From the IMG/VR virus record IMGVR_UViG_2698536348_000016: 16,246 nt of DNA; one strand, given 5' to 3'. This DNA is from a virus (taxonomy: Duplodnaviria; Heunggongvirae; Uroviricota; Caudoviricetes). Below, in pieces: positions 81 through 16,246 of this stretch. A program made the position numbers and the translations under genes. Every line of letters starts with the position of its first letter. Position 1 is the stretch's first letter. The notes under the pieces are model-generated. The model worked only from the letters and a program-made list of their open reading frames with translations. It ran no database searches and was not told where the DNA came from.

Positions 81-622
81 TTGCCGCTTCGAAAAAATAC
101 ACGGTTATTGCGCCTGGATGCCGCAGCTTCACGACGGCTCATAAACAGTTTAAACACGCTTTGCCCAATGACGTCGTGTTCTTTCAACCCTGTGTAATCT
201 TCACATAACCGATTGAAGCGTTGGATATTCCCCCGGCTGTCGAGAATCACTATTGCGGAATGTGCTTCAGAAACTACCTGCTCAGCAAAGGAAAGCCCGT
301 GTGATAAATCACGAGCAACCGCCGGTGTGTCATGCCATGCAGACGCGTTGCCAGCCCATTCCCGTTTATTGATTTTTCGTCCTACCAGATGCACAGAAAG
401 ATCGCTTTCATCGACGGTCAGACTCATCATCAGGCTGGAGGTGATGACCGTCATTTCCCTGATGCGAGCAGCCTGTTCGGCAGATAACTGCAATGTACGA
501 TCAGGTTCTGTGGTTTCGGTGGTAGAAAAGCGCAAAACATCGCTGCTTTCCGTCAACCGCCAGTATGGATTGTGCGATCCGAGAAAGTTGTACAACGTTG
601 TGGACTCCCTAACGGTTTTCAT
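81..622 (-). pseudogene. pdeR: pdeR (yciR/gmr) 5' fragment, c-di-GMP phosphodiesterase N-terminal PAS region, interrupted by the IS
   Basis: ORF 32..622 starts MKTVRESTTLYNFLGSHNPYW... with GGAGG RBS 9 nt upstream of the ATG at 622. The expected protein is about 660 aa (PAS-GGDEF-EAL), but the frame runs into IS sequence after about codon 181 (..RVFFRSGN) and stops at 32. Confidence 0.6.
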
Positions 623-821
623 GATGCATATCCTCCGGTTAACTGCGGAGTCCGCGGTTAAATAAAAGGAACAACATGACTTACATGAAATTAACGGCGG
701 CTAAACGCATTGTTTTTTTTATATATTTATTTGTAATCCAGTTTTGGAAAAACGCCAGTTTTCAAACGAAAGTCAGTTAAAAAATCTGCCTGGATATAAC
801 GAAGGTAGAGCGGGGAAATAA

Positions 822-848
822 ACGGCCCATCCATGAGGAATGGGCCGT
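822..848 (-). terminator. Intrinsic terminator downstream of rnb
   Basis: Hairpin ACGGCCCAT / ATGGGCCGT (9-bp arms) directly after the rnb stop; on the minus strand it is followed by a T-rich stretch (TTTATTT). Confidence 0.55.
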
Positions 849-857
849 GAAAGGAGA

Positions 858-2792
858 TTACGCGACCGGGCGCGCAATAATGCTGCGGGTTTCCATGCGG
901 ACTTCGGCAATAGTGACGTCAATAACGTCAGTCACTTTGTAAACCGTTTCACCTTTAATTTGTACAGTGCCGTTTTCCTGGCTGCAAACCAGTTCATCGC
1001 GCATAGCGTGTAAGAAAGGTGCCGGAATAAAGGCGATAGCGCCGTTATCAACCAAACGAACACGCATGCCGCCACGGCTGATATCGACAATTTCCGCTGC
1101 GAAACGGGTGTCGGTCCCGGCTTTGTCTTTCAGGAAGCGTGCGTATAACCAGTCACCAACATCACGTTCTGCCATCCGGTTGAGACGGCGACGCTCGGCC
1201 ATTTGGACAGTGATTTCATCCTGTGGGCGCGTCGCAGTTTCGCCTTTGATAACCGCTTTCAGCAGACGGTGGTTGATCATGTCGCCATATTTACGGATCG
1301 GCGAAGTCCAGGTGGCGTATGCTTCCAGACCGAGGCCAAAGTGAGGACCGGGTTCAGTGCTAATTTCAGCAAATGACTGGAAGCGACGAATGCGGCTGTC
1401 GAGGAAACCAGTTGGTTGCGCGTCCAGTTCACGACGCAGTTTGCAGAAACCGTCCAGCGTGAGCACTTCTTCGGCATCGACATGCAGACCGTGCGTTTTC
1501 AGCAACGCTGCCAGCGCGTCGGCATTCGCCGGATCAAAGCCCATATGCACGTTATAGATGCCAAAACCGAGCTTATCGCGCAGTACGCGGGCCGCACAAA
1601 TGTTAGCGGCAATCATCGCTTCTTCGACGATACGGTTGGCAATGCGACGAGGCTCGGCGACGATATCCAGCACTTCACCTTTTTCACCGAGAATAAAGCG
1701 GTAATCCGGGCGATCTTTAAACACCAGTGCGTGGTTATGACGCCACTCGCCGCGGCGTTGGCAAATTTGCGCTAGCAAACGGACTTGTTCGGCAATTGCT
1801 TCACTTTCAGGCTGCCAGTCACCGGTATTTTCCAGCCAGTCAGAAACCTGGTCATACACCAGCTTTGCTTTGGATTCGATGGTGGCGGCAAAGAATTCGA
1901 TATTATCTTCAATGGTGCCATCAGCGGAGAGCGTCATGCGGCATACCAGTACCGGGCGGACTTCATTGGCGCGCAGTGAGCAGAGATCGTCAGAAAGCTC
2001 GCGAGGCAGCATAGGGATGTTGAAGCCAGGCAGATAGTTGGTGAATGCGCGAATTTTCGCGGCTTTGTCCAGCTTGCTGCCTTCAGCAATCCACGCGGTT
2101 GGATCGGCAATCGCCACAATCAGCTGAAGTTTGTCATCCGGCAACGCCTTAGCGAAAAGGGCGTCATCCATATCTTCTGTGCTGGCACTGTCGATGGTGA
2201 CAAAATCCAGCGCGGTCAGATCTTCACGAACCAGACCTTCATCGAGCATTTCGGTAGCGACGCCGTCTGGTGCTTCTTTTTCCAGATTATGGCGCGCAAG
2301 GGTAACCCACCACGGTACAAAGTGGTCGTCACCAAAAGTGATGTATTGTGTCAGTTCAGCATAGAAAGAACGATCGCCTTTCAGCGGATGACGGCGCATT
2401 TCGGCAACCGCCCAGTCGCCTTCTTTAAACTCGTGGTTCAGGCCACGGGCTGCGCGGCAAGGAATGGCGTCTTTTAAGAGTGGATGATCAGGAACGATGG
2501 CCAGACGGTCATTTTTGCCCTGAACTTTACCCACGAAACGAGTCAGGAACGGTTCAACCAGTTCTTCTGGCTCTGCGGATTCACGTTCTTTTTCACTGTG
2601 GATCACCGCGATAATTCGGTCGCCATGCATGACTTTTTTCATCTGCGGCGGCGGAATGAAATAACTTTTTTGCGCGTCGACTTCCAGGAAGCCAAAGCCT
2701 TTTTCTGTGGCTTTTACCACCCCTTCAGCGCGTGGCGTCTGGGAATGCAGTTGCTGTTTAAGCTGCGCTAGCAGCGGGTTGTCCTGAAACAT
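858..2792 (-). CDS. rnb: Exoribonuclease II (RNase II)
   Basis: 644-aa [41 protein letters not shown]..., matching RNase II as I recall it (RNB catalytic domain, C-terminal S1 domain); length and neighbours fit. Confidence 0.96.
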
Positions 2793-2859
2793 AATTGTCT
2801 ATTTTGGTGGCCATTAGAGCGGCTGACAGTTTTACGCGAATCTGTCTGACGCGGCAAGG

Positions 2860-3987
2860 TTAATATGTCTCACCCAACGCGATTTTTAAGCGATTTATCC
2901 AGCCACACAGCCCGCTCCATACCAGCAGATTAATAATCTGCGTTGATGATTTTTCGTGTTCGAGTAAAGGGCTGAACTGGGCGGCGCTAAAGCGATCGGG
3001 TGCTCGGGTCAGCCATTGTATCGCCTGAACGGTAGCGTGCTCAACAGAATGACGGTCAGCCCATTGGTTAATTTCATTTTCGCCCTTGCGCAGAAGGGGG
3101 CTGATTTTTTTATATTCATTTGATGAATCCATACAGGCGGCAAAACAAGCAGGACTGCCATTTATCCGCGCGCATAACAACGCCGCAAGCTTATTATCCG
3201 GCTGTGTATTAACCCGTGTACTGTTTAACAACCTTTCGAGAAGGGAAAGTGAAATAGGGTGGAGAGAGAGTGTTTCGGCCAGTTGGCAAAGTTCTGCTGT
3301 TGAACTTTTTGTGTACTCTTCAGGTAGTTTTTCCACCTCATAGCTGCTTCGCCAGCGTATTGATTCATCAGCAAACAGTGACGCGTCGGCGTAGTTTTGT
3401 ATTTCCAGACCGGGTAACCAGCGTACCGGGTGCCCGAGATAAGCCTGAAATGTCGCAATGGTCCGCGCCTGAAAGCCAATAAAACCAATGATTTGGTTAA
3501 TGATCACACAGTCCCCGGCAGTAAGACCGACGTCATTCAGATGCTGGCGCGATCGGTTGTCGATAATAGAAGGCGAGCTAGCCAGTTGGCGGGCATATTG
3601 CGTGATTTGTGCCAACCTATGATTGCTTTCCCTGGAGGAATCAGGCCCGGGGAGCGGCGTAAGTCGCGCCGAATAGTAGTTACATAACCGCTGGACGCCG
3701 CAAACCTGAGCAACCGTCAGGGCCGTAGACAAGCGTTCATAAGCGGTGAAGGTCTGTGAACGGGTCACGGTAAGCTGGTCAGGGAACAATTCCACTGCAA
3801 GAACGCGCGCAGGGACCAGCCATGAAAGGAAGGGAGCCAGCGTTTCTTCATCAAGGAGCACGTCGAGCAGAAAGGGATCGCTGACCTTTGCGGCTTCCGG
3901 GACCAGAGGCAGAACGTCATACTCCGCAGTACTGGATTGCGTTTCATGATACCAGTGGCTTTTGCCGGTGATGTGGCGTTGTTCCAT
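2860..3987 (-). CDS. yciW: YciW (CMD-like putative oxidoreductase)
   Basis: ORF track gives 401 aa from 4065, but AAGGAG lies 5 nt upstream of the internal ATG at 3987 ([15 protein letters not shown]...), giving 375 aa; synteny between rnb and fabI. Confidence 0.85.
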
Positions 3988-4092
3988 GGGCGCTCCTTGG
4001 TCGTAAAGGAAATCGTTATCCTGACGCAAGGCGGGAAGGGGAGAAAGACGGATCGGCGATAACAAATATCAGAAAGGTATAACAGAGATAAC

Positions 4093-4111
4093 GGGCGGCA
4101 GAACGCCGCCC
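4093..4111 (-). terminator. Hairpin downstream of fabI (probable terminator)
   Basis: GGGCGGC agaac GCCGCCC perfect 7-bp stem 20 nt after the fabI stop; the U-tract on the minus strand is imperfect (GTTATCTCTGTTAT). Confidence 0.4.
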
Positions 4112-4131
4112 AATATTTACCAACAGAATGA

Positions 4132-4920
4132 TTATTTCAATTCGAGTTCGTTCATTGCAGCGATGCTGAAACCGCCGTCAACGTGGACCACTTCACCGGA
4201 GATACCGGCAGAGAGATCGGAGCACAGGAATGCCGCGGAGTTACCCACATCTTCAATAGTAACGGTACGGCGAATCGGGGTAACGGCTTCGCAATGAGCC
4301 AGCATTTTGCGGAAGTCTTTGATACCGGAGGCCGCCAGAGTACGGATCGGACCAGCAGAGATGGCGTTAACACGCACACCTTCCGGACCCATCGCGTTCG
4401 CCATATAGCGCACGTTCGCTTCCAGAGACGCTTTTGCCAGACCCATAACGTTGTAGTTCGGGATAGCGCGCTCAGCGCCAAGGTAGGAAAGGGTCAGCAG
4501 GGCAGAACCCGGATTCAGCATGGAGCGGCAAGCTTTTGCCATTGCAACGAAGCTGTAGGAGCTGATGTCGTGGGCAATTTTGAAGCCTTCACGGGTAACG
4601 GCGTTAACATAGTCACCATCCAGCTGATCGCCAGGTGCAAAACCAATAGAGTGTACGAAACCGTCAAATTTCGGCCAAACTTTCCCCAGTTCAGCGAACA
4701 TAGTGTCGATGCTGGCATCTTCTGCAACATCGCACTGCAGAACGATGTCAGAACCCAATTGAGCGGCAAATTCTTCTACGCGGCCTTTCAGTTTGTCGTT
4801 CTGGTAGGTGAATGCCAGTTCAGCTCCTTCGCGGTGCATCGCCTGAGCGATACCGTAGGCGATGGATAGTTTGCTGGCAACACCGGTTACCAGAATGCGC
4901 TTACCGGAAAGAAAACCCAT
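4132..4920 (-). CDS. fabI: Enoyl-ACP reductase (NADH) FabI
   Basis: 262-aa [43 protein letters not shown]..., SDR-family signature and length of FabI. Confidence 0.96.
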
Positions 4921-5084
4921 AGCTTTAATCCTTATTGTTGATGCTTGTTGTGCCTGAAAATCAGGCGATTCGTCGTTTTAGTAAACAGTACGAACAGATA
5001 AACGGTTATTATAATCAACCTGGCTGTGAGTAGCTATAGTTGCCAGGTCCGACCGGAGCAGGCTGCGGCAGGGTGGGCGCTTTT

Positions 5085-5124
5085 CCCCTTACCCTAACCC
5101 TCTCCCCAGAGGGGCGAGGGGACC
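5085..5124. repeat. GC-rich imperfect palindromic intergenic repeat (Box C/REP-like), copy A
   Basis: CCCCTTACCCTAACCCTCTCCCCAGAGGGGCGAGGGGACC; shares ACCCT(A/C)ACCCT and GGGCGAGGGG blocks in inverted orientation with copy B at 5271..5306. Confidence 0.4.
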
Positions 5125-5270
5125 ATATTGTGCAAATATTGTTACCCCAGCAACAAACAGGCTCATACAGCCCCTAACCCTTTTATGGCGATGGCTGGGA
5201 TGGTTCAGACCTTGCCGAATATTCTCCAGCACTGTCTCCATGTTTTCACCACAACAGCTATTCGGCTCGG

Positions 5271-5306
5271 TCGGCCCCCTCGCCCTTTCAGGGTGAGGGT
5301 GACCGG
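5271..5306. repeat. GC-rich imperfect palindromic intergenic repeat, copy B (inverted relative to A)
   Basis: TCGGCCCCCTCGCCCTTTCAGGGTGAGGGTGACCGG; its reverse complement aligns with copy A; overlaps the ycjD stop. Confidence 0.4.
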
Positions 5307-5638
5307 CGGTTCAGTTCCTGCAGAATAATCTCCAGCACCGCCTCCTCATTACAATCAATCTCGTTATGCCAGAAACGCAGCACGGTCCAGCTCTGCGACT
5401 CAAGCCAGCTAGTGCGCCTGGTATCATAGGCAACTGCCAAATCATGCTGCCCACCATCCAGCTCAACGACTACGCGCGCCGAGCAGCAAGCAAAATCGAG
5501 AATGTAGCTCCCCACCGGATGTTGACGGCGAAATTTGAAATCACCAAAACGTCGGCTGCGAAGATATCGCCAGAGCTTTCGTTCCTGCAAAGTGAGATTG
5601 CGTCTTAAATCACGCGCATTTGATTTTATTTTATCCAT
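5288..5638 (-). CDS. ycjD: YcjD, DUF559 endonuclease-fold protein
   Basis: ORF 5288..5641 begins at GTG; the ATG at 5638 gives MDKIKSNARDLRRNLTLQERKLWRYLRSRRFGDFKFRRQHPVG..., 116 aa; position between fabI and sapF. Confidence 0.8.
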   Translation of the reverse strand: MDKIKSNARDLRRNLTLQERKLWRYLRSRRFGDFKFRRQHPVGSYILDFACCSARVVVELDGGQHDLAVAYDTRRTSWLESQSWTVLRFWHNEIDCNEEAVLEIILQELNRRSPSP

Positions 5639-5640
5639 CA

Positions 5641-5679
5641 CCTCATTCTGACAAGATTTAATCTCTTGTCAGAATGAGG
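5641..5679. repeat. Perfect inverted repeat (16-bp arms, 7-nt spacer) between sapF stop and ycjD start
   Basis: CCTCATTCTGACAAGA tttaatc TCTTGTCAGAATGAGG; no U-tract on either strand, so not a classical intrinsic terminator. Confidence 0.6.
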
Positions 5680-5708
5680 TGGATAATCTGGAAGGAGGAT
5701 TCAGAAAA

Positions 5709-6515
5709 TTAGCGATCTTTACGCCACGCATCCGCTGTCAATGCTTCGCCAAAGTGCCCGGCAATCAGCCGTTTGGTGAGTTCATGCAGCGGCGATGCCA
5801 GCACATCCGCGGTGCTGCCTCGTTCGACAACCTCACCCTGATGCATCACCAGCACCTGGTCGCTAATGTGCTTCATCATTCCGATATGCTGGGTAACATA
5901 AATATACGAAATGCCCTGTTTTTCCTGTAACTCCAGCATCAGATTAATCAACTGCGAACGCATCGACATATCCAGTGAAGCGAGGGCTTCATCGGCAATA
6001 ATGACTTTTGGGCGCAATATCAGCGCGCGCGCCAGACCCAGACGCTGTTTTTGTCCGGGTGCCAACATATGCGGATAGTAACTGACGTGATCCGGTAGCA
6101 GCCCAACCATACGCATCGTTTCAATAATCTGTTTGCGACGCTGTTCCGGTTCCAGGTCGGTGTTCAGGCGCAGTGGAAAATCCAGAATTTGCGAGATACG
6201 TTGACGGGGATTCAACGAGGTCGAAGGATCCTGAAAAATCATGCGAATACGCTGACTGCGGAAGGAATAATCGCCAAAATGCAGTGGATGATCGTCAATC
6301 AATAACTCGCCGCTGGTAGGCTCTATCATTCCCGCCAGCATTTTTGCCAGCGTGGATTTACCCGAACCATTCTCGCCAATAATCGCCAGTGTCTGGCCTT
6401 CACGTAGCGTAAAGCTCAAGGGTTTTACCGCTTCTACGGTCTGACGACGAAACCAGCCGGTCCGGTAGCGGAACGTTTTACTTAAATTACGCACTTCAAG
6501 CAGCGTTTCGATCAT
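5709..6515 (-). CDS. sapF: Peptide ABC transporter ATP-binding protein SapF
   Basis: 268-aa ORF MIETLLEVRNLSKTF... with Walker A GENGSGKST and ABC signature; follows sapD. Confidence 0.95.
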   Translation of the reverse strand: MIETLLEVRNLSKTFRYRTGWFRRQTVEAVKPLSFTLREGQTLAIIGENGSGKSTLAKMLAGMIEPTSGELLIDDHPLHFGDYSFRSQRIRMIFQDPSTSLNPRQRISQILDFPLRLNTDLEPEQRRKQIIETMRMVGLLPDHVSYYPHMLAPGQKQRLGLARALILRPKVIIADEALASLDMSMRSQLINLMLELQEKQGISYIYVTQHIGMMKHISDQVLVMHQGEVVERGSTADVLASPLHELTKRLIAGHFGEALTADAWRKDR

Positions 6516-6516
6516 C

Positions 6517-7509
6517 TCACTCTTTCTCCATGTTCAGCGGGAAATGACAGGCATAGAGATGATTTTTCGCCCCCGTCAAACGTGGCGTCACAATGCATTC
6601 TCGTTGTGCATACGGGCAACGTGGCCCCAGACGACAACCAATCGGTAACTGTTCCAGCAGTGGGATAGCGCCGGGCAGCGTATTGAGGCGACTTTTATGC
6701 GGCATCGCGCTGCCGAAGTCTGGTATCGCGCGGATCAGCGCCTGGGTATAAGGATGATGTGGCATCGTCACCAACTCCTTACTCGGCGCGGTTTCCACTG
6801 TTTGACCGCAGTAAAGCACGTTAATTTTATCCGCCCATTGGCTAAGCATTTGTAAGTCATGGCTGATAAGCAAAATAGTGGTATTGCTGTTTTGGTTGAG
6901 ACGCGTCAGCAGGCGAAAGATTTGCGCCTGGGTTGTTGGCTCCATTGAGTTGGTCGGTTCGTCAGCAATCAGCAGACGCGGTTGATTCGCCAGTGCAATG
7001 GCTATCATCACTTTCTGACATTCACCTTCGGTCAACTCATAGGGAAAACTGCGCATCGCATCTTTGTGATCTTTAATCCCCACGCGGTGCAGCAGTTCAA
7101 TGGCACGGCGTTTGCGCCAGCCAAAACGCTGCCACCAACGGCCTTTATAGGTCCAGGCTGGGATGTTTTGCATCAACTGGCGACCCACACGTTCTGAAGG
7201 GTCAAGACACGACTGCGGTTCCTGGAAAATCATCGACACGTTATGGCCAACCAGTTTGCGCCGTTCGCGTGCGGAGAGACGCAGCAAATCGATATCATCA
7301 AAACGCATACGGTCAGCAGTAACACGCCAGTTATCTTTATTCACCCCACAAATCGCTTTCGCAATCAAACTCTTGCCGGAACCGGATTCACCAACAAGAC
7401 CGCGGATTTCACCTTCGGTTAAGGTCATACTTACCCGGTCGACGGCTTTAACCCACTCATCACCGGTTTTAAATTCAATGGTCAGGTTACGAATATCGAG
7501 TAATGGCAT
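6517..7509 (-). CDS. sapD: Peptide ABC transporter ATP-binding protein SapD
   Basis: 330-aa [29 protein letters not shown]... with Walker A GESGSGKS; start overlaps the sapC stop. Confidence 0.95.
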
Positions 7510-8399
7510 TATTCCACCCCCGCAATAATCGCACGACGAACGCCATCGCCAAGGAGGTTAACCAACAACACGCTAATCATAATTGCCGCACCTGGCAGCA
7601 TGACAGTCCACGGGGCGACATAAATCAGTTCCAGCGCATCACCGAGCATCGCTCCCCATTCAGGCGAGGGGAGTTGTGCGCCGAGATCGAGAAAGCCCAG
7701 CGCGGCGATATCGAGAATTGCCATCGACAGTGCGCGGGTGATCTCGGTGACCAGCCCGGCGGTGATGTTTGGCATCACAGCAAACCAGAGAATATTCAGC
7801 GTTGATGCGCCATCCAGACGGGCGGCGATAACGTACTCTTTTTCCAGTTCGTCATGCACCATGCTGTAAATCGAACGTACCATACGCGGCAGCAATGCCA
7901 GCCAGACAGCAAACATAGCGTGGGACAAACTCGGTCCGGCAAACGCTACAACGATAATTGCCAACAGCAGCGAAGGGATCGCCAGTAAGGTATCCAGAAT
8001 ATGGTTAAGCACCGCTGAGCGGAGGCCGTGTGTCGCCCCGGCGAAGGTGCCCAGTACCAGGCCACAGATCGTCGCGGCAAGCGTCACCACAAATGCGCCA
8101 CCCACGGTTGGCGCAGCTCCGCTCAGTAAACGGCTTAAAACATCGCGTCCGAGGTCGTCAGTCCCCAGGAAGAAAGAAACTTCGCCATAGCGCGACCATG
8201 ACGGCGGCAATAATTGATAACCGAGAAATTGCTGGTCGATGCCGTAAGGCGCAAACCAGCCGCCAAAAATACACAGTACAGCCAGCCCCGCGCAGCCGTA
8301 CAGGCCGACCATCGCAGAGGCGTCACTATAAAATTTGCGCCAGGCGGTACGCAGCGTGCCCGGCGGGCGCTTTTCGCTGTATACGCTATCGTAAGGCAT
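7509..8399 (-). CDS. sapC: Peptide ABC transporter permease SapC
   Basis: 296-aa [38 protein letters not shown]..., multi-TM permease; RBS GAAGG 6 nt upstream of the ATG at 8399. Confidence 0.95.
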
Positions 8400-8533
8400 G
8401 ATTACCTTCTTTAAACTTATTTGCTTTGATTCGTTTTGCTTTAGTTTTTTCTTTCATTTCAATCACATGCCATATTTAGGTGCTTTATTCTTGTTTGTTG
8501 CTATTCGTTTCTTGTAGTTCCAATTTAAGAAAA
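8400..8533. other. Host/prophage junction region (candidate attL and integrase arm-site region)
   Basis: Composition switches abruptly to AT-rich non-coding DNA immediately upstream of the sapC ATG; short direct repeats (TTGCTTT x2, TTCTTGT x2). No sapB reading frame is present. The exact core is not determinable without an empty-site sequence. Confidence 0.45.
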
Positions 8534-8535
8534 AT

Positions 8536-8574
8536 GTGTACACTAAAGTGTATACGAAACACGAGGGTGTACAC
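8536..8574 (+). promoter_or_regulatory. Three copies of the 8-bp palindrome GTGTA(C/T)AC overlapping the integrase RBS/start (candidate operator)
   Basis: GTGTACAC at 8536..8543, GTGTATAC at 8548..8555, GTGTACAC at 8567..8574; the last overlaps the GAGGG RBS. Confidence 0.5.
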
Positions 8575-8575
8575 A

Positions 8576-9763
8576 TTGCTCACCGATACAAAACTAAGAA
8601 AGTCTCTTGGCAAAAAACGAGACAAAATCGAAGTGCTTTCTGATGCACAAGGGCTGAATGTTCGGTTATCAACTTCCGGCAGTATAACATTTTTTTACCG
8701 CTACCGATGGAATGGCAAGGCTGCACAACTGGCGATCGGCAGTTATCCGTCCATTTCATTGGCTCAGGCCAGGGAGCGTCGCCAGCAGTTTAGAGACTGG
8801 CTCACTGAGGGACTGGATCCCCGTCGTCAGGTTATGCTGGAAAAGCAGAAAAAGTCTCAGGCTATGACCGTTAAAGAAGCATTTGATTACTGGGAGCAAC
8901 ATTATTGTATTCCCGAAGGTCTGAAAAAACTGAAGGTCAACAGGCGCGATTTTAATAACCACATTGCGCCCGTACTAGGAAATGTCATTGTCGAACAGAC
9001 AACAAAAGCTCACTGGCTGAGCCTGTTTGATTCGATGGGACGCCGTGTGGTCACTGGGCAGATGCTGGGCTTAATGCAACGAACTTTCAGGTTTTGTTCA
9101 AACAGGGGGGTGATAAGCATTAATCCGCTTGAAAGCCTGAGGCGTTCAGATGTGGGCATGGCTGCGGCAACCAGAGACAGGAAACTGAGCGATGAAGAGA
9201 TCAAGATTGTCTGGTCGGCTTTGTCTGATATGGGGGAAAGGCAGAAGCTGGTTGTTAAATTTCTTCTTATGACGGGGTGCAGAACCGCAGAGATTAGAAC
9301 AGCAAGATGGGAATGGTTCGATTTTAACGAGAATACATGGACTGTTCCTGCAAGCGAATATAAAACGGGTAAGACCGTCAGAAGAGCGTTGCCTCCGGCG
9401 ATCGTGAAACTGATGCAGGAAGTGAAGAAAACCTCCGTTTCTCAGCATGTTCTTACGCGGGCAAGATATAACGGCCCTGAAGATGATAAGCCACCGCAAC
9501 AACCTCATATCGCTTTGTTTTCTGCTCAGATCATCGCTAAAACGGGGATGAAAACATGGTCCCTTCATGACTTGAGAAGAACGGTGGCAACACGATTATC
9601 CGAGTTAGGTGCGCCACCACATGTGGTTGAAAAGTTATTAGGGCATCATATGTCCGGCGTAATGGCTCGTTATAATCTGCATGATTATCTCGAAGATCAA
9701 AGGCATTGGTTGCAGGTGTGGCAGAATTATCTTGAAGGGTTAGTTGATGCGCCATTAACCTGA
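8576..9763 (+). CDS. int: Tyrosine recombinase/integrase, P4/CP4-57-like with N-terminal arm-binding (DUF4102-type) domain
   Basis: ORF 8480..9763. N-terminal LTDTKLRKSLGKKRDK...GLNVRL...FFYRYRWNGK...SLAQARERR fits the arm-binding domain; catalytic motifs TGCRTAEIR, HDLRRT, LGHH...ARY. Start chosen at TTG 8576 (GAGGG RBS 7 nt upstream, N-terminus then aligns with LTD-type integrase starts); in-frame ATG at 8534 is the alternative. Confidence 0.88.
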   Translation: MLTDTKLRKSLGKKRDKIEVLSDAQGLNVRLSTSGSITFFYRYRWNGKAAQLAIGSYPSISLAQARERRQQFRDWLTEGLDPRRQVMLEKQKKSQAMTVKEAFDYWEQHYCIPEGLKKLKVNRRDFNNHIAPVLGNVIVEQTTKAHWLSLFDSMGRRVVTGQMLGLMQRTFRFCSNRGVISINPLESLRRSDVGMAAATRDRKLSDEEIKIVWSALSDMGERQKLVVKFLLMTGCRTAEIRTARWEWFDFNENTWTVPASEYKTGKTVRRALPPAIVKLMQEVKKTSVSQHVLTRARYNGPEDDKPPQQPHIALFSAQIIAKTGMKTWSLHDLRRTVATRLSELGAPPHVVEKLLGHHMSGVMARYNLHDYLEDQRHWLQVWQNYLEGLVDAPLT

Positions 9764-9969
9764 GCATTATTTCTTTCCCACTCCAGAATATCAGAAAGCC
9801 ACCAACGATTGGGGTTTCCCTTTATTGTTGGTTTAGGAAATGGTTTGCTGAGGGACTTTGGCTTTCTGTCTGGAGTACTCCAGAAATACAGAGTGCTTCG
9901 TGAAATTTTATATCGTTCCAGAATATCTTTGGTTAACAAGATTTCATTTGTTTTTGTAATGTCGTTCAT
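9727..9969 (-). CDS. AlpA/excisionase-like small DNA-binding protein
   Basis: 80-aa ORF with GGAG RBS 7 nt upstream; ...ILLTKDILERYKISRSTLYFW...FPKPTIKGNPNRWWLSDILEWERNN resembles AlpA/Xis-type winged-helix proteins; 3' end overlaps the integrase 3' end by 37 nt convergently. Confidence 0.65.
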   Translation of the reverse strand: MNDITKTNEILLTKDILERYKISRSTLYFWSTPDRKPKSLSKPFPKPTIKGNPNRWWLSDILEWERNNAQVNGASTNPSR

Positions 9970-10000
9970 TTTATTCTCCAGTTGAATTGTTTAATCATCG

Positions 10001-10021
10001 AAAAACCGCCCGAAGGCGGTT
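10001..10021 (-). terminator. Intrinsic terminator (minus strand) between the 83-aa ORF and the xis-like gene
   Basis: AACCGCC cgaa GGCGGTT hairpin; on the minus strand it is followed by TTTTT. Confidence 0.55.
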
Positions 10022-10022
10022 G

Positions 10023-10274
10023 TCAGTTGATTGATGTGCGGCGCATTTTGCGAAGGCTGGCAATATGCTTTTCCTTCTCAATTTCTGCTTTAATCATGTG
10101 TAGTTCGTTGTGATCGATTCGCTCAAATTCTGCATTAAATGCGCTAATTGAAGCGGCTCTGGTTCTCCCATCCAGCCTTCGGAAGATTACCTGCGTCAGA
10201 GTGATTTTGCAGACTTCAACCGGATAGTTGTTGGCATCGACGAAAGACTGCCCGCGCTGGATTAGAACGAACAC
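10023..10274 (-). CDS. Hypothetical prophage protein (83 aa, GTG start)
   Basis: ORF from track with AAGGA about 9 nt upstream of the GTG; basic C-terminus; lies in the slot between exo and xis where lambdoid phages carry small early genes. No recognisable motif. Confidence 0.4.
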   Translation of the reverse strand: MFVLIQRGQSFVDANNYPVEVCKITLTQVIFRRLDGRTRAASISAFNAEFERIDHNELHMIKAEIEKEKHIASLRKMRRTSIN

Positions 10275-10322
10275 CGGTAGTATTCCTTAATTGTCATATC
10301 ATTTGCACCTCGTTGCTACTGG

Positions 10323-11003
10323 CTATCGCCATTGCTCCCCAAATACAAAACCAATTTCAGCCAGTGCCTCGTCCATTTTTTCGATGAACTCCGGTACCAT
10401 TTCGTCAAAAACCTCCATGTATTTTTCATCCCGTTCGACCACGACATAATGCAGGCCTTCACGCTTCATACGCGGGTCATAGTTGGCAAAGTACCAGGCA
10501 TCTTTTCGCGTCACCCACATGCTGTACTGCACCTGGGCCATGTAAGCCGACTTTATGGCCTCGAAACCACCGAGCCGGAATTTCATGAAATCCCGGGAGG
10601 TAAACGGGCATTTCAGTTCAAGGCCGTTGCCGTCACTGCATAAACCATCGGGAGAGCAGGCGGTGCGCATACTTTCGTCGCGATAGATGATCGGGGATTC
10701 AGTAACATTCACGCCGGAAGTGAACTCAAAGAGGGCTCTGGCGTCGTTCTCGTACTGTTTTCCCCAGGCCAGCGCTTTAGCGTTAACTTCCGGAGCCACA
10801 CCGGTGCAAACCTCAGCCAGCAGGGTGTGGAAGTAGGACATTTTCATGTCAGGCCATTTCTTTCCTGAGCGGGGTTTTGCTATCACGTTGTGAACTTCTG
10901 AAGCGGTGATGACGCCGAGCCGTAATTTGTGCCACGCATCATCCCCCTGTTCGACAGCTCTCACGTCGATCCCTGTACGTTGCAGGATAATGTCCGGTGT
11001 CAT
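10323..11003 (-). CDS. exo: Lambda-type exonuclease (Red alpha, Exo)
   Basis: 226-aa [53 protein letters not shown]..., near-identical to lambda Exo as I recall it; start overlaps the bet stop. Confidence 0.96.
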
Positions 11004-11785
11004 GCTGCTACCTTCTGCTCTGTGACTTTCTGTTTCAGGAATCCAAGAACCTTCACAGCTTCAGCCTGTGTTAGTTCTGAAGATGTGTAAATGTTGCGGC
11101 GAAAAATCTGGGAACAGAGCGGCAACAGGTCGTCATCCCACGTTTTTTCCATGGAAGTAAGAAGGGCGTTAATTTCCGACATGGTTTCTTCGTTAACCGG
11201 GGTGATGTCGCGTTCCGGCTGACGTTCTGTAGTATATGCAGTATTTTCGACAATACGCTCGGCTTCATCCTTGTCATAGATGCCAGCAAATCCGAAGGCC
11301 AGGCGAGCACACTGAATCATGGCTTTGTGCCGTAACATCCGTTTGGGATGCGACTGCCACGGTCCGGTGATTTCTCTGCCTTCGCGGGTTTTGAATGGTG
11401 CGCGGCGACATTCATCCATCCACTCGGTAACGCAGATCGGGTGATTGCGATCTTTGCGGTAAATCCGGCATGTACAGGACTCATTGTCCTGCTCAAAGTC
11501 CATGCCATCAAACTGCTGGTTTTCATTGATAATGCGGGACCAGCCATCAACGCCAACCACCGGAACGATGCCGTTCTGCTTGTCAGGGAAGGCGTAAATT
11601 TCTTTCGTCCAGGGATTAAGGCCGTACTGGTTGGCGACGATCAACAATGCGATAAATTGCGCATCGCTGGCATCACCTTTAAATGCCGTCTGGCGAAGAG
11701 TGGTGATTAGTTCCTGTGGGTCGACAGAATCCATGCCGACACGTTCAGCCAGCTTCCCTGCCAGCGTTGCGAGTGCTGTACTCAT
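11000..11785 (-). CDS. bet: Lambda-type single-strand annealing protein (Red beta, Bet)
   Basis: 261-aa [69 protein letters not shown]..., matches lambda Bet. Confidence 0.96.
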
Positions 11786-11790
11786 CCGTT

Positions 11791-12087
11791 TTATACCTCT
11801 GAATCAATATTAATTTGGTGACGGGCGATGGTTTCAGCCATGTAGCGGATGTGTTCTGCCATGCGTTCCTGAAAATCGACATCGTCATCAAATGCACGGG
11901 AAATAGCTTTTTTGCTGGCCCCGTGACGTTGCAGATTATCGATGCATAGCGATTCAAACAGGTGTTGGGGCAGACCTTTTTCCAGGTCGTCTGCCAGCTC
12001 AGCTTCAGTTTCTTCACGGGCAATTTGCTGGTAGTGTCGTGCCCATGACTGCTCTTCAATGCGATCGGGGATAAGCCAGGCATTCAT
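11791..12087 (-). CDS. gam: Gam (RecBCD inhibitor), short GamS-length form
   Basis: 98-aa [29 protein letters not shown]...[20 protein letters not shown], matches the C-terminal 98 aa of lambda Gam; ATGA overlap with the upstream ORF. Confidence 0.9.
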
Positions 12088-12494
12088 GATTTATCACCTT
12101 CGAAATTTTCAAGCCTGTTGGCAATCATGATGGCGATATCAGGGATTGCTGGCGCTGTGGCTATACATGCGGGGTTGGCGCACAAACCATAGACGGCGGC
12201 AATCACGAGCTGTCTTTTCCAGTCGAGAGTTACTGGCTCAGAATTGGCGTCATCGCCGGACGTATCACTGCCTGGCTCGTTCTGAACAACGGTTTCGCCC
12301 TCCTGAGCGGCATCAACAGAGTTTTCCTGAATGATCTTCTCCTCAGTTTGTGCTGAGTCTTCTCCATCAGCGGCGTCATTTTCTCCAAAAGTTTCAGCGT
12401 AAGTTTCATCTCCCATTACTGGACCACAGTCAGGGCAATGGCCGCCACCGTTCTGACTGCATGTGGTGCAAACCTTTTCCACTTCCTGTTGCAT
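12084..12494 (-). CDS. Hypothetical zinc-ribbon / acidic protein in the kil position upstream of gam
   Basis: ORF 12084..12551 begins at GTG; first ATG at 12494 gives [25 protein letters not shown] (CxxC...CxxC), then a strongly acidic segment, then a hydrophobic/Cys-containing C-terminus. Translationally coupled to gam. Confidence 0.55.
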
Positions 12495-12623
12495 TACTGG
12501 CCCTGGAAGTGGGAGCGAGTCTGCGCCGCGCTGCGGGAGCTGAACAAGCACCGGGATATTGTTCGACAGATTGTCGATTCATCCGGTCGTATTGTGTCGG
12601 AAAAGTGATTGCCGGAGGCGCTT

Positions 12624-13019
12624 ATGGCGAAACCTTTTACACACGAACAGCGGGAAGAACTGAAGGCACGAATTATCGGATTGGTACGCAAAAATGAACG
12701 CATGACGATATCGCAACTGGAGAGAGCGACGGGAGCAGGCTGGCATTCAGTCAGACGTTGCCTTGTGGATGTACTGGCTTGTGGCGATTTATACATGTCC
12801 GGTAAATACGGTGTTTTTGCATCAGAACAGGTGTATCGCGTATGGCGTAAGACACCGGAGAAAACAACTGACCAGACATTGATTCGAAAGTTACCAGACG
12901 GAGAAATTCGCCGCTACGATAGACGCCTGAACATAATCTGTCGCGAGTGCCGGAATAGTGAAGTTATGCAGCGCGTGCTGGCTTTCTATCAGGGGAATTT
13001 TCAGGAGGCGGTACTGTGA
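12624..13019 (+). CDS. Hypothetical protein (131 aa), first gene of the opposite-strand cassette
   Basis: ATG at 12624 with GGAGG RBS 5 nt upstream; MAKPFTHEQREELKARIIGLVRKNERMTISQLERATGAGWHSVRRC...; possible helix-turn-helix-like segment; family unknown. Confidence 0.6.
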   Translation: MAKPFTHEQREELKARIIGLVRKNERMTISQLERATGAGWHSVRRCLVDVLACGDLYMSGKYGVFASEQVYRVWRKTPEKTTDQTLIRKLPDGEIRRYDRRLNIICRECRNSEVMQRVLAFYQGNFQEAVL

Positions 13020-13075
13020 GTAAATTAGCTATCAGGCTTCAATTGTCGCTGGCATTCGCATCAAAGGAGAATGAG

Positions 13076-13660
13076 ATGACCACTTTTACAAAAGAGCAGT
13101 TAATCAGTCATGTTAGTGAAAATGTAAAGGCGATGAAATTTGCAGTAAAACAGACAGCATTCAAAAATTCTCTCGAGGCAATTGAGTTGGATTTAGCACT
13201 GGCCCTTGTTGCTCAGGCTTCGCTGGAAGCAGAGCCCGTGCTTTATATGAATCGATTTACCGGAAAGACATTCTCACTGGAAGAGCAACCCGGTGCTGAT
13301 AAGGAACCGGAAATATACGTGCCGCTATATGCTGCCCCGCCAGACAGCGCCGCCATGCTTCAGGCTGGAAACTTTCGGGAAAAGAAGGGTTCGTCAACCA
13401 ATAATTTTCGGGAAATCTCGGAAACGTCAACCAACCATCCGGTAACTCTGGATGGTTGGATAAGCTGTAGTGAGCGAATGCCGGATGACGGTCAGCACGT
13501 AATTATTTTATGTGATGGCGCATTCGTTCTTTATGCGCAATATCGAGACGGTGAGTTTTTTGATGTAGTCCGTGATGGTGATGAATTTTTCGAAACACAG
13601 AGCCGCAATGTAACCGACTGGATGCCGCTACCAGAACCGCCGCAGGAGGTGCGCCAATGA
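13076..13660 (+). CDS. Hypothetical protein with C-terminal DUF551-like domain
   Basis: ATG at 13076 with AAGGAG RBS 7 nt upstream; C-terminus ...DGWISCSERMPDDGQHVIIL...VTDWMPLPEPP resembles the phage DUF551 motif; internal tandem repeat (NFRE...STN x2) at 13369..13434. Confidence 0.7.
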   Translation: MTTFTKEQLISHVSENVKAMKFAVKQTAFKNSLEAIELDLALALVAQASLEAEPVLYMNRFTGKTFSLEEQPGADKEPEIYVPLYAAPPDSAAMLQAGNFREKKGSSTNNFREISETSTNHPVTLDGWISCSERMPDDGQHVIILCDGAFVLYAQYRDGEFFDVVRDGDEFFETQSRNVTDWMPLPEPPQEVRQ

Positions 13661-13740
13661 ACTGGCCTGAAGCATTTGCAATTACAGGCGTTGCTATGGC
13701 TATCACCTTTTTAGTATATGTTATTTGTCGGTGGGGGTAA
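13657..13740 (+). CDS. Small hydrophobic peptide (27 aa), translationally coupled to the upstream gene
   Basis: ATGA overlap with the stop of the preceding gene; MNWPEAFAITGVAMAITFLVYVICRWG, single predicted TM segment; below the ORF-track length cutoff. Confidence 0.35.
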   Translation: MNWPEAFAITGVAMAITFLVYVICRWG

Positions 13741-13775
13741 AAACGTTCGCCGGGATTAACACCAAAGGAGGGAAT

Positions 13776-13880
13776 ATGTCGGATGATATATCACTGGCAA
13801 TGGAAGGTGCGCTGGCTGTTGTTGCTGTTGTGGGCGTTTACTGCCTGGTTGTGTTTTTGATGGATCGACTAGGGAACTGA
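13776..13880 (+). CDS. Small hydrophobic peptide (34 aa)
   Basis: AAGGAGGG RBS 4 to 5 nt upstream of ATG; MSDDISLAMEGALAVVAVVGVYCLVVFLMDRLGN, single predicted TM segment. Confidence 0.45.
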   Translation: MSDDISLAMEGALAVVAVVGVYCLVVFLMDRLGN

Positions 13881-13890
13881 ATTCATTACG

Positions 13891-13908
13891 ATATGGGAAT
13901 TCCCATAT
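13891..13908. repeat. Perfect 18-bp palindrome ATATGGGAATTCCCATAT
   Basis: Self-complementary 18-mer 11 nt downstream of the peptide stop and just upstream of the putative hok promoter. Confidence 0.6.
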
Positions 13909-13922
13909 CGGGTAAAAACGGT

Positions 13923-13950
13923 TTGCGGTAAAGCGAGAGTTAAGTAGAAT
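13923..13950 (+). promoter_or_regulatory. Putative hok mRNA promoter
   Basis: TTGCGG (-35), 16-nt spacer, TAGAAT (-10); predicted 5' end near 13957 (GGGTGCTTGAGG), which is complementary to the 3' segment 14331..14343. Confidence 0.35.
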
Positions 13951-13994
13951 TGCTGCGGGTGCTTGAGGCTGTCTGCCTCGGGCATGCCACCGTA

Positions 13995-14090
13995 AGGCAG
14001 ACAGAGAAAAGCCCCAGTTAACATTACGCGTCCTGCAAGACGCCTAACATTAATCTGAGGCCAATTTCATGCTAGACACATGTAGGTTAG
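13995..14090 (-). ncRNA. Expected Sok-like antisense RNA region (approximate)
   Basis: Inferred from hok/sok architecture: antisense to the leader and upstream in-frame start; minus strand has TTGCCT, 17 nt, TAACCT promoter-like hexamers near 14113..14085 and hairpin GCGTC ctgcaa GACGC (plus 14027..14042). Boundaries not resolved. Confidence 0.3.
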
Positions 14091-14125
14091 CCTCTTACGC
14101 GCCGAAAGGCAAGGAGAAGCAGGCT

Positions 14126-14281
14126 ATGAAGCAGCAAAAGGCGATGTTAGTCGCCCTGATCGTCATCTGTATTACCGTCGTAGTGACGGCACTGGTAACG
14201 AGGAAAGACCTCTGCGAGGTACGAATCCGAACCGGTCAGACGGAGGTTGCTGTCTTCACAGCTTACGAACCTGAGGAGTAA
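14126..14281 (+). CDS. hok: Hok/Gef-family type I toxin (51 aa)
   Basis: MKQQKAMLVALIVICITVVVTALVTRKDLCEVRIRTGQTEVAVFTAYEPEE, close to HokD/HokC (Gef) as I recall them; AAGGAG RBS 9 nt upstream; ORF track 14069..14281 includes an in-frame upstream ATG. Confidence 0.9.
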   Translation: MKQQKAMLVALIVICITVVVTALVTRKDLCEVRIRTGQTEVAVFTAYEPEE

Positions 14282-14349
14282 GAGACCAGGCGAGGGAGAA
14301 ATCCCTCGCCACCTCTGATGTGTCAGGCATCCTCAACGCACCCGCACTT

Positions 14350-14371
14350 AACCCGCTTCGGCGGGTTTTTT
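14350..14371 (+). terminator. Intrinsic terminator of the hok transcript
   Basis: AACCCGC ttcg GCGGGTT followed by a T6 run; the same 20-mer recurs at 15191..15210. Confidence 0.7.
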
Positions 14372-14490
14372 CACTTACTGTGGTTGTGAATACGATTGGT
14401 ATTAGGCTATGCTAACAACATTAGCCTGACTAATTTTGTATTGACTTGATTTTTGTTAAAGAACAGGACGGAGAAGTAAGGGTACACCCA

Positions 14491-14670
14491 ATGAGCTACG
14501 CACTAAAAAAACACCCGCGATTGACTATTCCCCCTCGCGATAAAAGCGTTGTGGCAGCTCCGCGCCCGGCTATCGATGAAAATTGCACTCATCGTGAGCA
14601 GGTGAAAAATGCTTTCGATTTCGGTTTTTCTCGTTACGAGAAGGCAATGGAAGAACTTTCAAAAGTGTAA
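14491..14670 (+). CDS. Small protein (59 aa), candidate antitoxin partner of the Doc-family toxin
   Basis: ATG at 14491 (ORF track starts at TTG 14446); MSYALKKHPRLTIPPRDKSVVAAPRPAIDENCTHREQVKNAFDFGFSRYEKAMEELSKV; stop 18 nt before the toxin ATG. Not Phd-like by eye, so the role is inferred from position only. Confidence 0.4.
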   Translation: MSYALKKHPRLTIPPRDKSVVAAPRPAIDENCTHREQVKNAFDFGFSRYEKAMEELSKV

Positions 14671-14688
14671 TGATGGGTATTGTGCTCT

Positions 14689-15174
14689 ATGGCTGAGATT
14701 GTTGAAGGAGTGCACTACCTTTCGTTTGATGATCTTACCGAAATTAATCGCCTTTTAATTGAGCTTCAAACACCAGATGAACCTGTTAGTGTGCTGAGTG
14801 TTGATAATTTAAGTTCTTCTCAGTCTCGTCCCAGCATGGTTCGATGGTATGAACAGACTAATGACATGTTTGTACTGGCATCAGTATTGATTGAAAGTCT
14901 GATTCAGAATCATCCATTTGCTAATGCAAACAAACGAACAGCTATGATGGCTGGTTATGTCTTCTTGTTGTTGAATGGCTATGAGTTAACAGCACCAGGC
15001 GATGAAATCGTGGAAATGGCAGAGGGACTGGCCTGCAAAACCTATACTCGAGAAGATCTCGAGAACTGGTTGTGTTATTGGTCTCGTGCGTATGACAGCC
15101 GGGAATTATGTAAAACAGGCGCAACTATTGTTTTGTATGAAACTATCAAGCTTAAAATAGAACAGCAAAACTAA
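14689..15174 (+). CDS. Doc-family (Fic-fold) toxin
   Basis: Contains HPFANANKRTAMMAGYVFLLLNGYEL, matching the Doc motif H-x-F-x-(D/N)-(A/G)-N-K-R and following helix (P1 Doc has HIFNDANKRTALNSALLFLRRNG as I recall). ATG 14689 chosen; TTG 14680 is the alternative. Confidence 0.8.
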   Translation: MAEIVEGVHYLSFDDLTEINRLLIELQTPDEPVSVLSVDNLSSSQSRPSMVRWYEQTNDMFVLASVLIESLIQNHPFANANKRTAMMAGYVFLLLNGYELTAPGDEIVEMAEGLACKTYTREDLENWLCYWSRAYDSRELCKTGATIVLYETIKLKIEQQN

Positions 15175-15188
15175 AGGTGCTTCTAATG

Positions 15189-15210
15189 AAAACCCGCTTC
15201 GGCGGGTTTT
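15189..15210. terminator. Bidirectional intrinsic terminator between convergent doc-like and higA-like genes
   Basis: AAAACCCGC ttcg GCGGGTTTT: perfect hairpin with an A-run upstream and T-run downstream. Confidence 0.7.
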
Positions 15211-15224
15211 GTTGTATTGGAGTA

Positions 15225-15542
15225 TCATGATATTACCTGGATCCCGTTTTTCTCTACGACTGAAAGAAGGCGAAGAGCGGCACCTCCCGGCCGTTTTACA
15301 CCACGTTCCCAGTCTGATATCAGGTTTTTACTGACGTTGAGGTATCTGGCAAAAACAGGTTGAGACAGATGCTCTCGTTCGCGCAGTGCACGGATCCTTT
15401 CCGGAGACATTACCGGCGCTGGCTGGAGACAAGTTTCATCGAATTCTCGCATAGTCTGTTTCGTTACTGCGCCGATATCATGAAGCGATTCCATCATTTC
15501 ATGTACGGATGCAAGCGCATCACTGCGGTAATTTTTACTCAT
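15225..15542 (-). CDS. HigA-like antitoxin (XRE-family HTH)
   Basis: 105-aa ORF MSKNYRSDALASVHEMMESLHDIGAVTKQTMREFDETCLQPAPVMSPERIRALREREHLSQPVFARYLNVSKNLISDWERG...; ATG overlaps the last codons of the upstream toxin frame (CCCAATGAGTAA), toxin-first order typical of higBA. Confidence 0.85.
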   Translation of the reverse strand: MSKNYRSDALASVHEMMESLHDIGAVTKQTMREFDETCLQPAPVMSPERIRALREREHLSQPVFARYLNVSKNLISDWERGVKRPGGAALRLLSVVEKNGIQVIS

Positions 15543-15905
15543 TGGGTACCTCCGTAAACTGACCCTGTAGAATCAGTTGTGCCAGTTGTTCATCTGTTAG
15601 ATTGAGTACGTGAGGAGCCGCCTTCCGAAATGCACTTTCCGCAGTAGCGGTTATATTTTCACGTTCATTTTTTGCGTATGCATATACGAAAAAGGCCCTT
15701 GTGCCGACGCGATAGAAAATGATTGTGCGATAACCGCCAGATTTGCCGCCACCGACTCGTGGCAGACGTTGCTTGATAACGCCGTTACCCAGGTTTGCTG
15801 AGATAAGCCCGTTATCAGCCTGTTTAACAATTTCGCGCAGTGATTGGTCGGATATTTTGTTTTGCGTGCAAATCGCTCAAACCAGGCGTTTTTAAAAATG
15901 CGCAT
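15535..15905 (-). pseudogene. HigB/Gp49-like RelE-superfamily toxin, disrupted by a frameshift in an A-run
   Basis: ATG at 15905 gives MRIFKNAWFERFARK, then the frame derails to the unrelated tail of ORF 15651..15968; the -1 frame continues NKISDQSLREIVKQADNGLISANLGNGVIKQRLPRVGGGKSGGYRTIIFYRVGTRAFFVYAYAKNEREN...QFTEVPNE to a stop at 15535 but has no start codon of its own. Break maps to the A4 run at plus 15860..15863. Confidence 0.75.
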
Positions 15906-15926
15906 TTTTTGTTCCGTTATTAATGT

Positions 15927-15941
15927 ATAACACATAGTGTT
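15927..15941 (-). promoter_or_regulatory. Candidate operator palindrome upstream of the higB-like gene
   Basis: TAACAC ata GTGTTA perfect 6-bp inverted repeat about 22 to 36 nt upstream of the toxin ATG. Confidence 0.4.
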
Positions 15942-15972
15942 ACATTGCGTAGGGATCTGCAATGCCATCAGT

Positions 15973-16002
15973 TTGACAACGTCGCGTGTTCGGGGCTATA
16001 TT
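15973..16002 (+). promoter_or_regulatory. Near-consensus sigma70-type promoter
   Basis: TTGACA (15973..15978), 18-nt spacer, TATATT (15997..16002); divergent from the higB-like promoter region. Confidence 0.5.
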
Positions 16003-16007
16003 CCTCA

Positions 16008-16083
16008 CGCGCCAGCAAAACCTGGCGTCGGGATTAGCACCCCGGATATCGAAACGGTGCATAACCGCGCTGGCGGTTTTTTT
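16008..16083 (+). ncRNA. Candidate small RNA or terminated leader (about 76 nt)
   Basis: Lies between the promoter above and an intrinsic terminator AACCGC gctg GCGGTT plus T7 (16063..16083); contains a further hairpin CGCCAG caaaac CTGGCG; the only ORF across it is a GTG-started frame that reads through the terminator. Confidence 0.4.
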
Positions 16084-16246
16084 ATGCGCTAAGCACAGTC
16101 ACATTCGCGATTTATGGCGGGCTGTGTGGGGGAGCCGAATGAGGTGTACTGACAATAGCGGACACTACCATTTGTTCTTTTTTTAAGCAGCTATCTGATG
16201 ATATTTTTCCCTGAAGGCTGCCGGGGAGATATTCCCCAGACGAGAG

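Follow-up and report, generated by a model that had tools for sequence, protein, structure and literature searches.

The window analyzed here, i.e. the whole stretch of 16,246 nt, carries in its left half a 5' fragment of pdeR followed by rnb, yciW, fabI, ycjD, sapF, sapD and sapC, all of them located on the minus strand. The genes were identified by full-length NCBIfam equivalog matches, and this half is ordinary chromosome of the E. coli/Shigella type. An IS3-family end lies inside pdeR, which is interrupted in the window.

The three sap genes next to the junction were intact, as had been stated in the first-pass annotation. The ABC ATPase gene sapF (5709..6515, minus strand) matched the equivalog NF011692 with 588.9 bits over positions 1-268 of 269. 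The second ABC ATPase gene, sapD (trkE; 6517..7509, minus strand), matched NF011674 over its full length with 752.9 bits, and the permease gene sapC (7509..8399, minus strand, ATG at 8399-8397) matched NF011691 with 610.6 bits over positions 1-296 of 296. When compared to K-12, zero amino-acid differences were found in each of the proteins SapF, SapD and SapC.

Beyond the ATG of sapC the composition of the DNA changes abruptly. The GC content was 28.4% in the region 8400-8533 vs 56.9% in sapC, and this AT-rich phage arm (8400..8533) takes the place of the sapB 3' end that natively precedes sapC. It is followed by the ORF of a tyrosine integrase on the plus strand, i.e. divergent from sapC, in agreement with the non-coding DNA and divergent integrase described initially. 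The arrangement of an intact sapABCDF operon, with sapA and sapB directly upstream of sapC and an overlap of 14 nt, is missing from the window. The ORF list contained no minus-strand ORF of at least 60 aa in 8400-8755, and tblastn with the SapB and SapA proteins of K-12 detected no coding capacity for either protein in the whole window (best E-values 1.7 and 0.35, respectively). The reported absence of sapB and sapA upstream of sapC was thus confirmed within the window, and a sapB-like ORF directly upstream of sapC was not found on re-examination either. A scan of 8380-8600 against Rfam gave no match.

To locate the breakpoint, 5,426 complete E. coli genomes were searched by megablast with positions 7400-9800 as query. 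In over 5,400 of them the match reached only to query base 1000, which corresponds to window position 8399, the A of the sapC ATG; blastn gave the same end of homology. The integrase side was reached by only six complete E. coli genomes in the megablast search. Hence, homology to uninterrupted genomes stops exactly where the prophage arm had been proposed to abut sapC.

The alignment against an uninterrupted sapB-sapC junction, suggested as a check by the first-pass annotation, also revealed an att core of 14 bp. In a three-way comparison the 14-mer CTATCGTAAGGCAT was present in the window (8386..8399), in the attB of K-12 (L002 3987-4000) and in the attR of strain ML35 (L003 34274-34287). The minus-strand reading of this core, ATGCCTTACGATAG, extends from the sapC ATG through the TAG of sapB. 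It is therefore the 14-nt overlap of the two genes, consistent with K-12, where the end of sapB sits 14 nt inside sapC. The host flanks on the outer sides of the core were identical at 300 of 300 positions. The inner flanks of phage and host agreed at just 7/40 and 12/40 positions. The former value holds for 8400-8439 against the K-12 sequence beyond the core, so that the AT-rich DNA is not a feature of the uninterrupted junction. At the far end in the window's own genome an order of the attR type would be expected, with the phage arm ending in ...AACGATAATTA, followed by the core CTATCGTAAGGCAT and then by ACCATTCC....

These data refine the boundary that was initially placed at 8399/8400. 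As the end of homology this position stands, but it is not the point of crossover, since the 14 bp of 8386-8399 are common to host and phage. Judged from the shared bases, the crossover is to be placed within the 14 nt that form both the beginning of sapC and the end of sapB. Inspection by eye for core-type inverted repeats around the core gave nothing convincing. ARAGORN found no tRNA or tmRNA gene in the window. A tRNA gene as the target was ruled out on this basis and by the nature of the target, which is an overlap of two protein genes.

Taken together, the region 8386-8600 is very probably the attL of a lambdoid prophage that was inserted by its integrase at the sapB/sapC overlap, with sapAB located beyond the far end of the prophage. 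According to this model, a phage tyrosine integrase would recombine attP and attB, which share the 14-bp core. This core, formed by the sapB stop and the sapC start, would be duplicated at both ends of the prophage. As a result, the sapABCDF operon would be cut into sapAB and sapCDF, which are about 55 kb apart in ML35.

The integrase ORF was annotated at 8534..9763 (plus strand) with an ATG at 8534, although a TTG at 8576 is the likelier start. Two Pfam domains scored above their gathering thresholds, namely Arm-DNA-bind_3 (PF13356; 76.4 bits, 1.9e-21) and Phage_integrase (PF00589; 74 bits, 1.6e-20). The catalytic signature R...H-x-x-R...H...Y could be read by eye in the translation itself, rather than from an alignment with a reference structure, as GCRTAE, HDLRRT, LGH and ARY. 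Furthermore, the N-terminal domain matched the solved domain 3jtz of a CP4-like integrase (E = 2.7e-10). By its sequence features, with both domains and the catalytic signature present, the protein fits the P4/CP4-like class with Arm-DNA-bind_3 (DUF4102).

A tRNA target is typical of many P4/CP4-like integrases, but it does not define them. This feature is absent for the integrase of the window. The view that a protein-coding target is unusual for a P4-type integrase found no support here, as relatives with about 32% identity come from Stx2c phages at prfC. The nearest other phage integrases were 30-33% identical and included those of the Stx2c and Stx1a phages of CC119 strains. In the available excerpts of Nakamura et al. 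(PMC10132054), the integration sites of these phages are prfC or the tRNA gene argW.

Three GTGTAYAC repeats are located at 8536..8574 (plus strand), just upstream of the likely int start. No further GTGTAYAY was found elsewhere in the 16-kb window, which amounts to 5 strand-matches vs 1.03 expected. Two more related copies are present in the attR arm of ML35 (L003 34180-34199), at a distance of 75-94 nt from the core, and the repeats are conserved in the Klebsiella-type integrase module described below. We consider them candidate arm-type Int sites. The repeats fall inside the 5' end of int as annotated. In E. coli strain 3426, the first ATG precedes the annotated int start by 11 nt and is out of frame. 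This argues that the repeats are DNA sites rather than coding sequence and makes TTG 8576 the more likely real start of int.

Next to the integrase a small ORF is located on the minus strand (9727..9969). Running toward int, it shares 37 nt with the 3' end of that gene and is annotated as a helix-turn-helix transcriptional regulator in the RefSeq record of ML35. No Pfam match was obtained for it. Its position suggests that it probably encodes an excisionase or directionality factor.

The AT-rich arm 8400-8533 was identical or had 1-3 mismatches in 12 other loci carrying the same integrase. With the prophage of ML35 the identity extends much further, since the left arm (window 8400-12506) was 100% identical. 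The early-left recombination genes on the minus strand at 10023..12551 share this identity up to 12506; they comprise DUF4222, exo, bet, gam and a truncated recE-family gene according to the ML35 annotation and Pfam (families YqaJ, RecT, Gam and Exonuc_VIII).

At position 12506 the collinearity with ML35 is broken. Window positions 79-12506 aligned to 12681-25107 of the ML35 sequence L001 and positions 12506-16139 to 35184-38817, so that 10,076 bp of the ML35 prophage (L001 25108-35183) are missing. The deletion junction shows a microhomology of 1 nt. The truncated recE-family ORF of the window had no counterpart on record. Deleted are the 5' part of the recE-family gene, kil, N, a LexA-family cI-like repressor gene, cro, cII and O/P-like replication genes. 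With the immunity region and the replication genes missing, the window does not hold a complete and inducible lambdoid prophage. An IS600 end starts at 16140. In addition to the 10-kb deletion, the IS600 and the interruption of pdeR, the window is distinguished from ML35 by 76 differing positions in the chromosomal part. The gene content thus characterizes the prophage of the window as a decayed, apparently non-inducible cryptic remnant that retains an intact int, xis-like gene and attL.

The window stops 7.8 kb into the prophage, and the evidence on attR and sapBA comes from ML35. There, the two cores are 55.3 kb apart. The second core copy at the far end is followed by intact sapB (WP_000583277.1) and sapA (WP_001250216.1), whose protein accessions are those of K-12. 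The first-pass annotation had mentioned in parentheses that sapAB might lie beyond the far prophage end, and exactly this is seen in ML35 at 55 kb. A loss of the SapA/SapB partners is unsupported; ML35, whose prophage has an identical left arm, keeps both genes. We infer that the far end in the window's own genome is the same as in ML35 and, consequently, that sapAB were displaced rather than lost in this strain; for ML35 the displacement is shown.

Since a copy of the core is present at either end of the prophage, the sapC frame is complete at attL, and the last four codons and the stop of sapB are retained at attR. On the basis of these reading frames, neither sapB nor sapC appears to be damaged by the integration, and it is the operon that would be cut into sapAB and sapCDF. 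Additionally, a locus with the chromosomal backbone of the window (L018; 6 mismatches in 8,321 nt, window 79-8399) carries an empty and continuous sapB-sapC site.

A true loss of sapA and sapB from the strain, by deletion or by an IS-mediated rearrangement that left sapCDF alone, was considered as well. Both genes are absent from the window. Moreover, the prophage is decayed, with its internal 10-kb deletion and the IS600 end at 16140, and an IS3-family end is found in pdeR; in a degraded element with IS elements active nearby the far end could be rearranged. However, the breakpoint coincides to the base with the known att core, and the deletion that was actually observed is internal to the prophage. 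The closed genome of ML35 retains intact sapB-sapA at attR, and for the Klebsiella prophages that occupy this site the available part of Bleriot et al. (PMC7371120) describes intact copies of sapB and sapC. We therefore regard a loss of the two genes as very unlikely and prefer their displacement to the far end of the prophage.

The sapB-sapC junction was continuous in 5,414 of 5,420 complete E. coli genomes, which means that occupancy of the site is rare. The six genomes in which it is split are ML35, four CC119 STEC strains and strain 3426. An attL junction at the same core was found in the CC119 loci L005 and L006 and in L008-L017.

An index of public assemblies contains the exact integrase of 409 aa in 291 blocks. 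All 10 places inspected among these blocks had the integrase 134 nt from sapC and the same attL. The immunity regions differed among the 10 places, and in two of them another chromosomal context was found beside sapF. The constant attL in spite of differing prophages indicates that int and its att site travel together among mosaic lambdoid phages and invariably insert here.

The same data bear on the question whether the junction could be an assembly artefact or chimera which joins sapC to an unrelated prophage contig. Apart from the IS elements that flank the window, nothing specific points in this direction. On the contrary, the identical junction was present in five closed RefSeq genomes, in 36 phage records derived from long PCR and in all ten independent assemblies examined. 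Two draft assemblies (L020 and L021), found through their YciW allele, share the 10-kb deletion of the window, their contigs ending inside the prophage. An artefact is thus extremely improbable, and insertion by the integrase at the sapB/sapC overlap remains the preferred explanation of the junction.

As to the consequences for expression, sapCDF would come to lie behind phage DNA. The genes would be cut off from the sapA promoter, and their transcription may be reduced or dependent on chance promoters of the arm. A loss of the translational coupling to sapB is a reasonable assumption as well. In Dickeya, sapABCDF is a single transcription unit, and the only internal start described serves fabI (PMC9239193). 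Given such a single unit, a polar loss of the sapCDF transcription driven by the sapA promoter is to be expected.

In exchange, the genes would gain a phage-derived translation signal. A Shine-Dalgarno-like GAAGGT, contributed by the phage arm, precedes the sapC ATG by 4 nt and stands in place of the native TAAGGA. Promoter-like matches in the region were at chance level in a consensus scan (3 vs 2.6 expected in shuffled sequence). A relaxed scan gave weak minus-strand candidates only, all inside int. These were TTGCCA-18-AAAAAT at 8718-8689 and a weak extended -10 candidate, TGtTATACT, ending at 8681. The comparison with the Klebsiella-type arm revealed no conserved -35/-10 elements in the sapC-proximal 95 nt. 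Conservation of this stretch is low when the two lineages of the integrase module are compared, and GAAGGT is replaced by AACGGATTCAT in the Klebsiella type. In view of the chance-level scan, the weak candidates and the lack of conserved -35/-10 elements, we do not claim a phage-borne sapC promoter.

The possibility has to be weighed, however, that the phage arm carries both a promoter and a ribosome binding site which keep sapCDF expressed or place them under phage control, so that the integration would be near-silent or regulatory. The GAAGGT motif and the two candidate promoters within int would fit such a role. In addition, the closed CC119 genome 2012C-4227 encodes SapC, SapD and SapF without any difference from K-12, and the available excerpts of PMC10132054 infer that the integration is ancestral in this lineage. 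Phages that carry a replacement gene end would offer an analogy. On the other hand, the promoter-like matches do not exceed chance, neither the sapC-proximal 95 nt nor the Shine-Dalgarno-like motif is conserved in the Klebsiella type, and proteins that stay identical for a short evolutionary time say little about selection. The single transcription unit in Dickeya, with an internal start only for fabI (PMC9239193), argues in the same direction. We consider this possibility rather unlikely. The more specific proposal that the arm supplies translation signals together with a phage-controlled or constitutive promoter, by which sapCDF would be uncoupled from sapAB and rewired, appears doubtful to a higher degree. 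A lambda-like early-left transcript could read through into sapCDF on induction; in the window, the 10-kb deletion took out the early-left promoter region.

If a rewiring were true, altered SapD-dependent Trk potassium uptake or putrescine export could follow, and all CC119 STEC strains as well as the Klebsiella lysogens at the sapB/sapC site would be affected. Likewise, a silencing of sapCDF in lysogens would bear on SapD/TrkE potassium uptake, putrescine export and antimicrobial-peptide phenotypes of CC119 STEC and Klebsiella. Such a silencing is apparently not addressed in the available excerpts of PMC10132054 or PMC7371120. More generally, the integration explains the occurrence of sapCDF without sapAB as a routine and reversible prophage insertion at a published site, and this guards against wrongly annotating the strain as a sapAB deletion mutant.

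The integration site as such is already known for E. coli (PMC10132054) and for Klebsiella (PMC7371120), as far as the available excerpts of both papers go, and the finding is accordingly real but ordinary. For the Stx2a phages of CC119, the excerpts of Nakamura et al. (2023, PMC10132054) name the site 'sapB' with an attB of 13 bp that overlaps sapC, compared to 14 identical bases found here, which is a minor discrepancy. According to these excerpts, all strains carry Stx2a phages at this locus, from which an ancestral integration is inferred.

The similarity of the window to these phages is very high. In the 36 records of Stx2a prophages from CC119 O165:H25/O172:H25 strains (LC727840 onward), the integrase was 99.5% identical on the amino-acid level. 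The region 8400-9800 was 99.7% nucleotide-identical to the window, and the attL core was alike, with one mismatch in 8386-8600. One of the Stx2a phage records opens with the sapC flank and the same junction, and xis-like and DUF4222 genes are located beside int as in the window. The remaining parts of the phages differ: those of CC119 are long-tailed, lambda-like and carry stx2a (PMC10132054, available excerpts), whereas the ML35 relative has late genes of the short-tailed type and no annotated stx.

For Klebsiella pneumoniae, prophages between sapB and sapC with both genes intact are reported in the available part of Bleriot et al. (2020, PMC7371120), namely ST16-OXA48phi5.1, ST11-VIM1phi8.2, ST846-OXA48phi9.2 and ST974-OXA48phi18. 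The integrase of ST16-OXA48phi5.1 was 79.4% identical to that of the window, is likewise divergent and is preceded by the same GTGTAYAC repeats. The core of the Klebsiella type, CTATCGTAGGGCAT, differs from that of the window by one base. In contrast, the sapC-proximal arm and the downstream genes (DUF4060, RecT/RecE types) are unrelated to those of the window. E. coli strain 3426 carries a phage of the Klebsiella type at the same site, with a 79% identical integrase and the one-base difference in the core.

Phage 21 and the element e14, both found in icd, integrate at the end of a protein gene and carry a duplicated gene end. The element described here resembles them in that the core overlaps coding sequence and the duplication keeps the frame, leaving the product unchanged. 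Unlike in phage 21 and e14, the core of the window spans two overlapping genes of an operon and consists of 14 identical bases with no substituted codons. The cost of the integration would accordingly differ from that in phage 21 and e14 and would consist in a split transcription unit rather than in an altered protein.

Compared with the otherwise identical prophage of the E. coli strain ML35, which is integrated at the same sapB-sapC site, the prophage arm in the window lacked 10,076 bp at position 12506 (25108-35183 of the ML35 locus, L001). The deletion removed kil, N, the repressor gene, cro, cII and the replication genes, and left a truncated gene of the recE family fused with the 3' end of a DUF1627 gene; the junction showed a microhomology of 1 nt. 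Two draft assemblies, GCA_042763235.1 and GCA_012759055.1, had an identical deletion.

RefSeq begins the integrase gene with an ATG at position 8534, inside the GTGTAYAC repeats (region 8534-8575), which are candidate arm-type Int sites. In E. coli strain 3426, carrying a 79% identical integrase at the same site, the first ATG was found 11 nt upstream of the annotated integrase start and is hence out of frame. Comparison of the two sequences points to the TTG at 8576 as the likely true start; as publicly annotated, the gene probably has 14 codons too many.

Further along the prophage arm, Rfam matches were obtained for the sok antitoxin RNA of the hok/sok module (116.9 bits), the Hfq-binding sRNA isrK (74.3 bits) and an overlapping c4-a1b1 antisense target (47.4 bits), together covering 13957-14131 and 15996-16083, both on the plus strand. 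Genes of the toxin-antitoxin type were located at 14680-15174 (+), 15225-15542 (-) and 15651-15968 (-); they comprise a gene for a Fic/Doc family protein and one for an HTH_3 protein, the latter paired with an ORF that has a weak likeness to RelE.

Both edges of the window carried the end of an insertion sequence. At 1-80 an end of the IS3 family (TGAACCGCCCCGGG...) was present, and the start of its transposase (MTKNTRFS) is read from the minus strand. This IS end broke pdeR after approximately codon 181, a gene that ML35 and the related drafts L020-L022 have intact. At 16140-16246 an IS600 end, likewise of the IS3 family, was located within the prophage at a place that is unbroken in ML35. 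The two ends suggest an IS-rich genome, Shigella-like or STEC-like.

In its chromosomal part the window differed from ML35 at 76 positions, most of them clustered in yciW (3038-3927) and in the stretch 5074-5931, which comprises ycjD with the fabI-ycjD intergenic region on one side and the 3' part of sapF on the other. In contrast, sapC and the prophage arm were 100% identical; the same arm is thus found next to different chromosomal alleles. The yciW allele of the window also occurred with an empty sapB-sapC site (locus L018). In two further assemblies (loci L013 and L016) the same integrase adjoined sapCDF as well, and a TetR regulator, an RND efflux system and an MFS transporter followed past sapF. 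Unlike the window, these loci carried no ycjD-fabI there; the attachment site is the same, but the chromosomal context is different.
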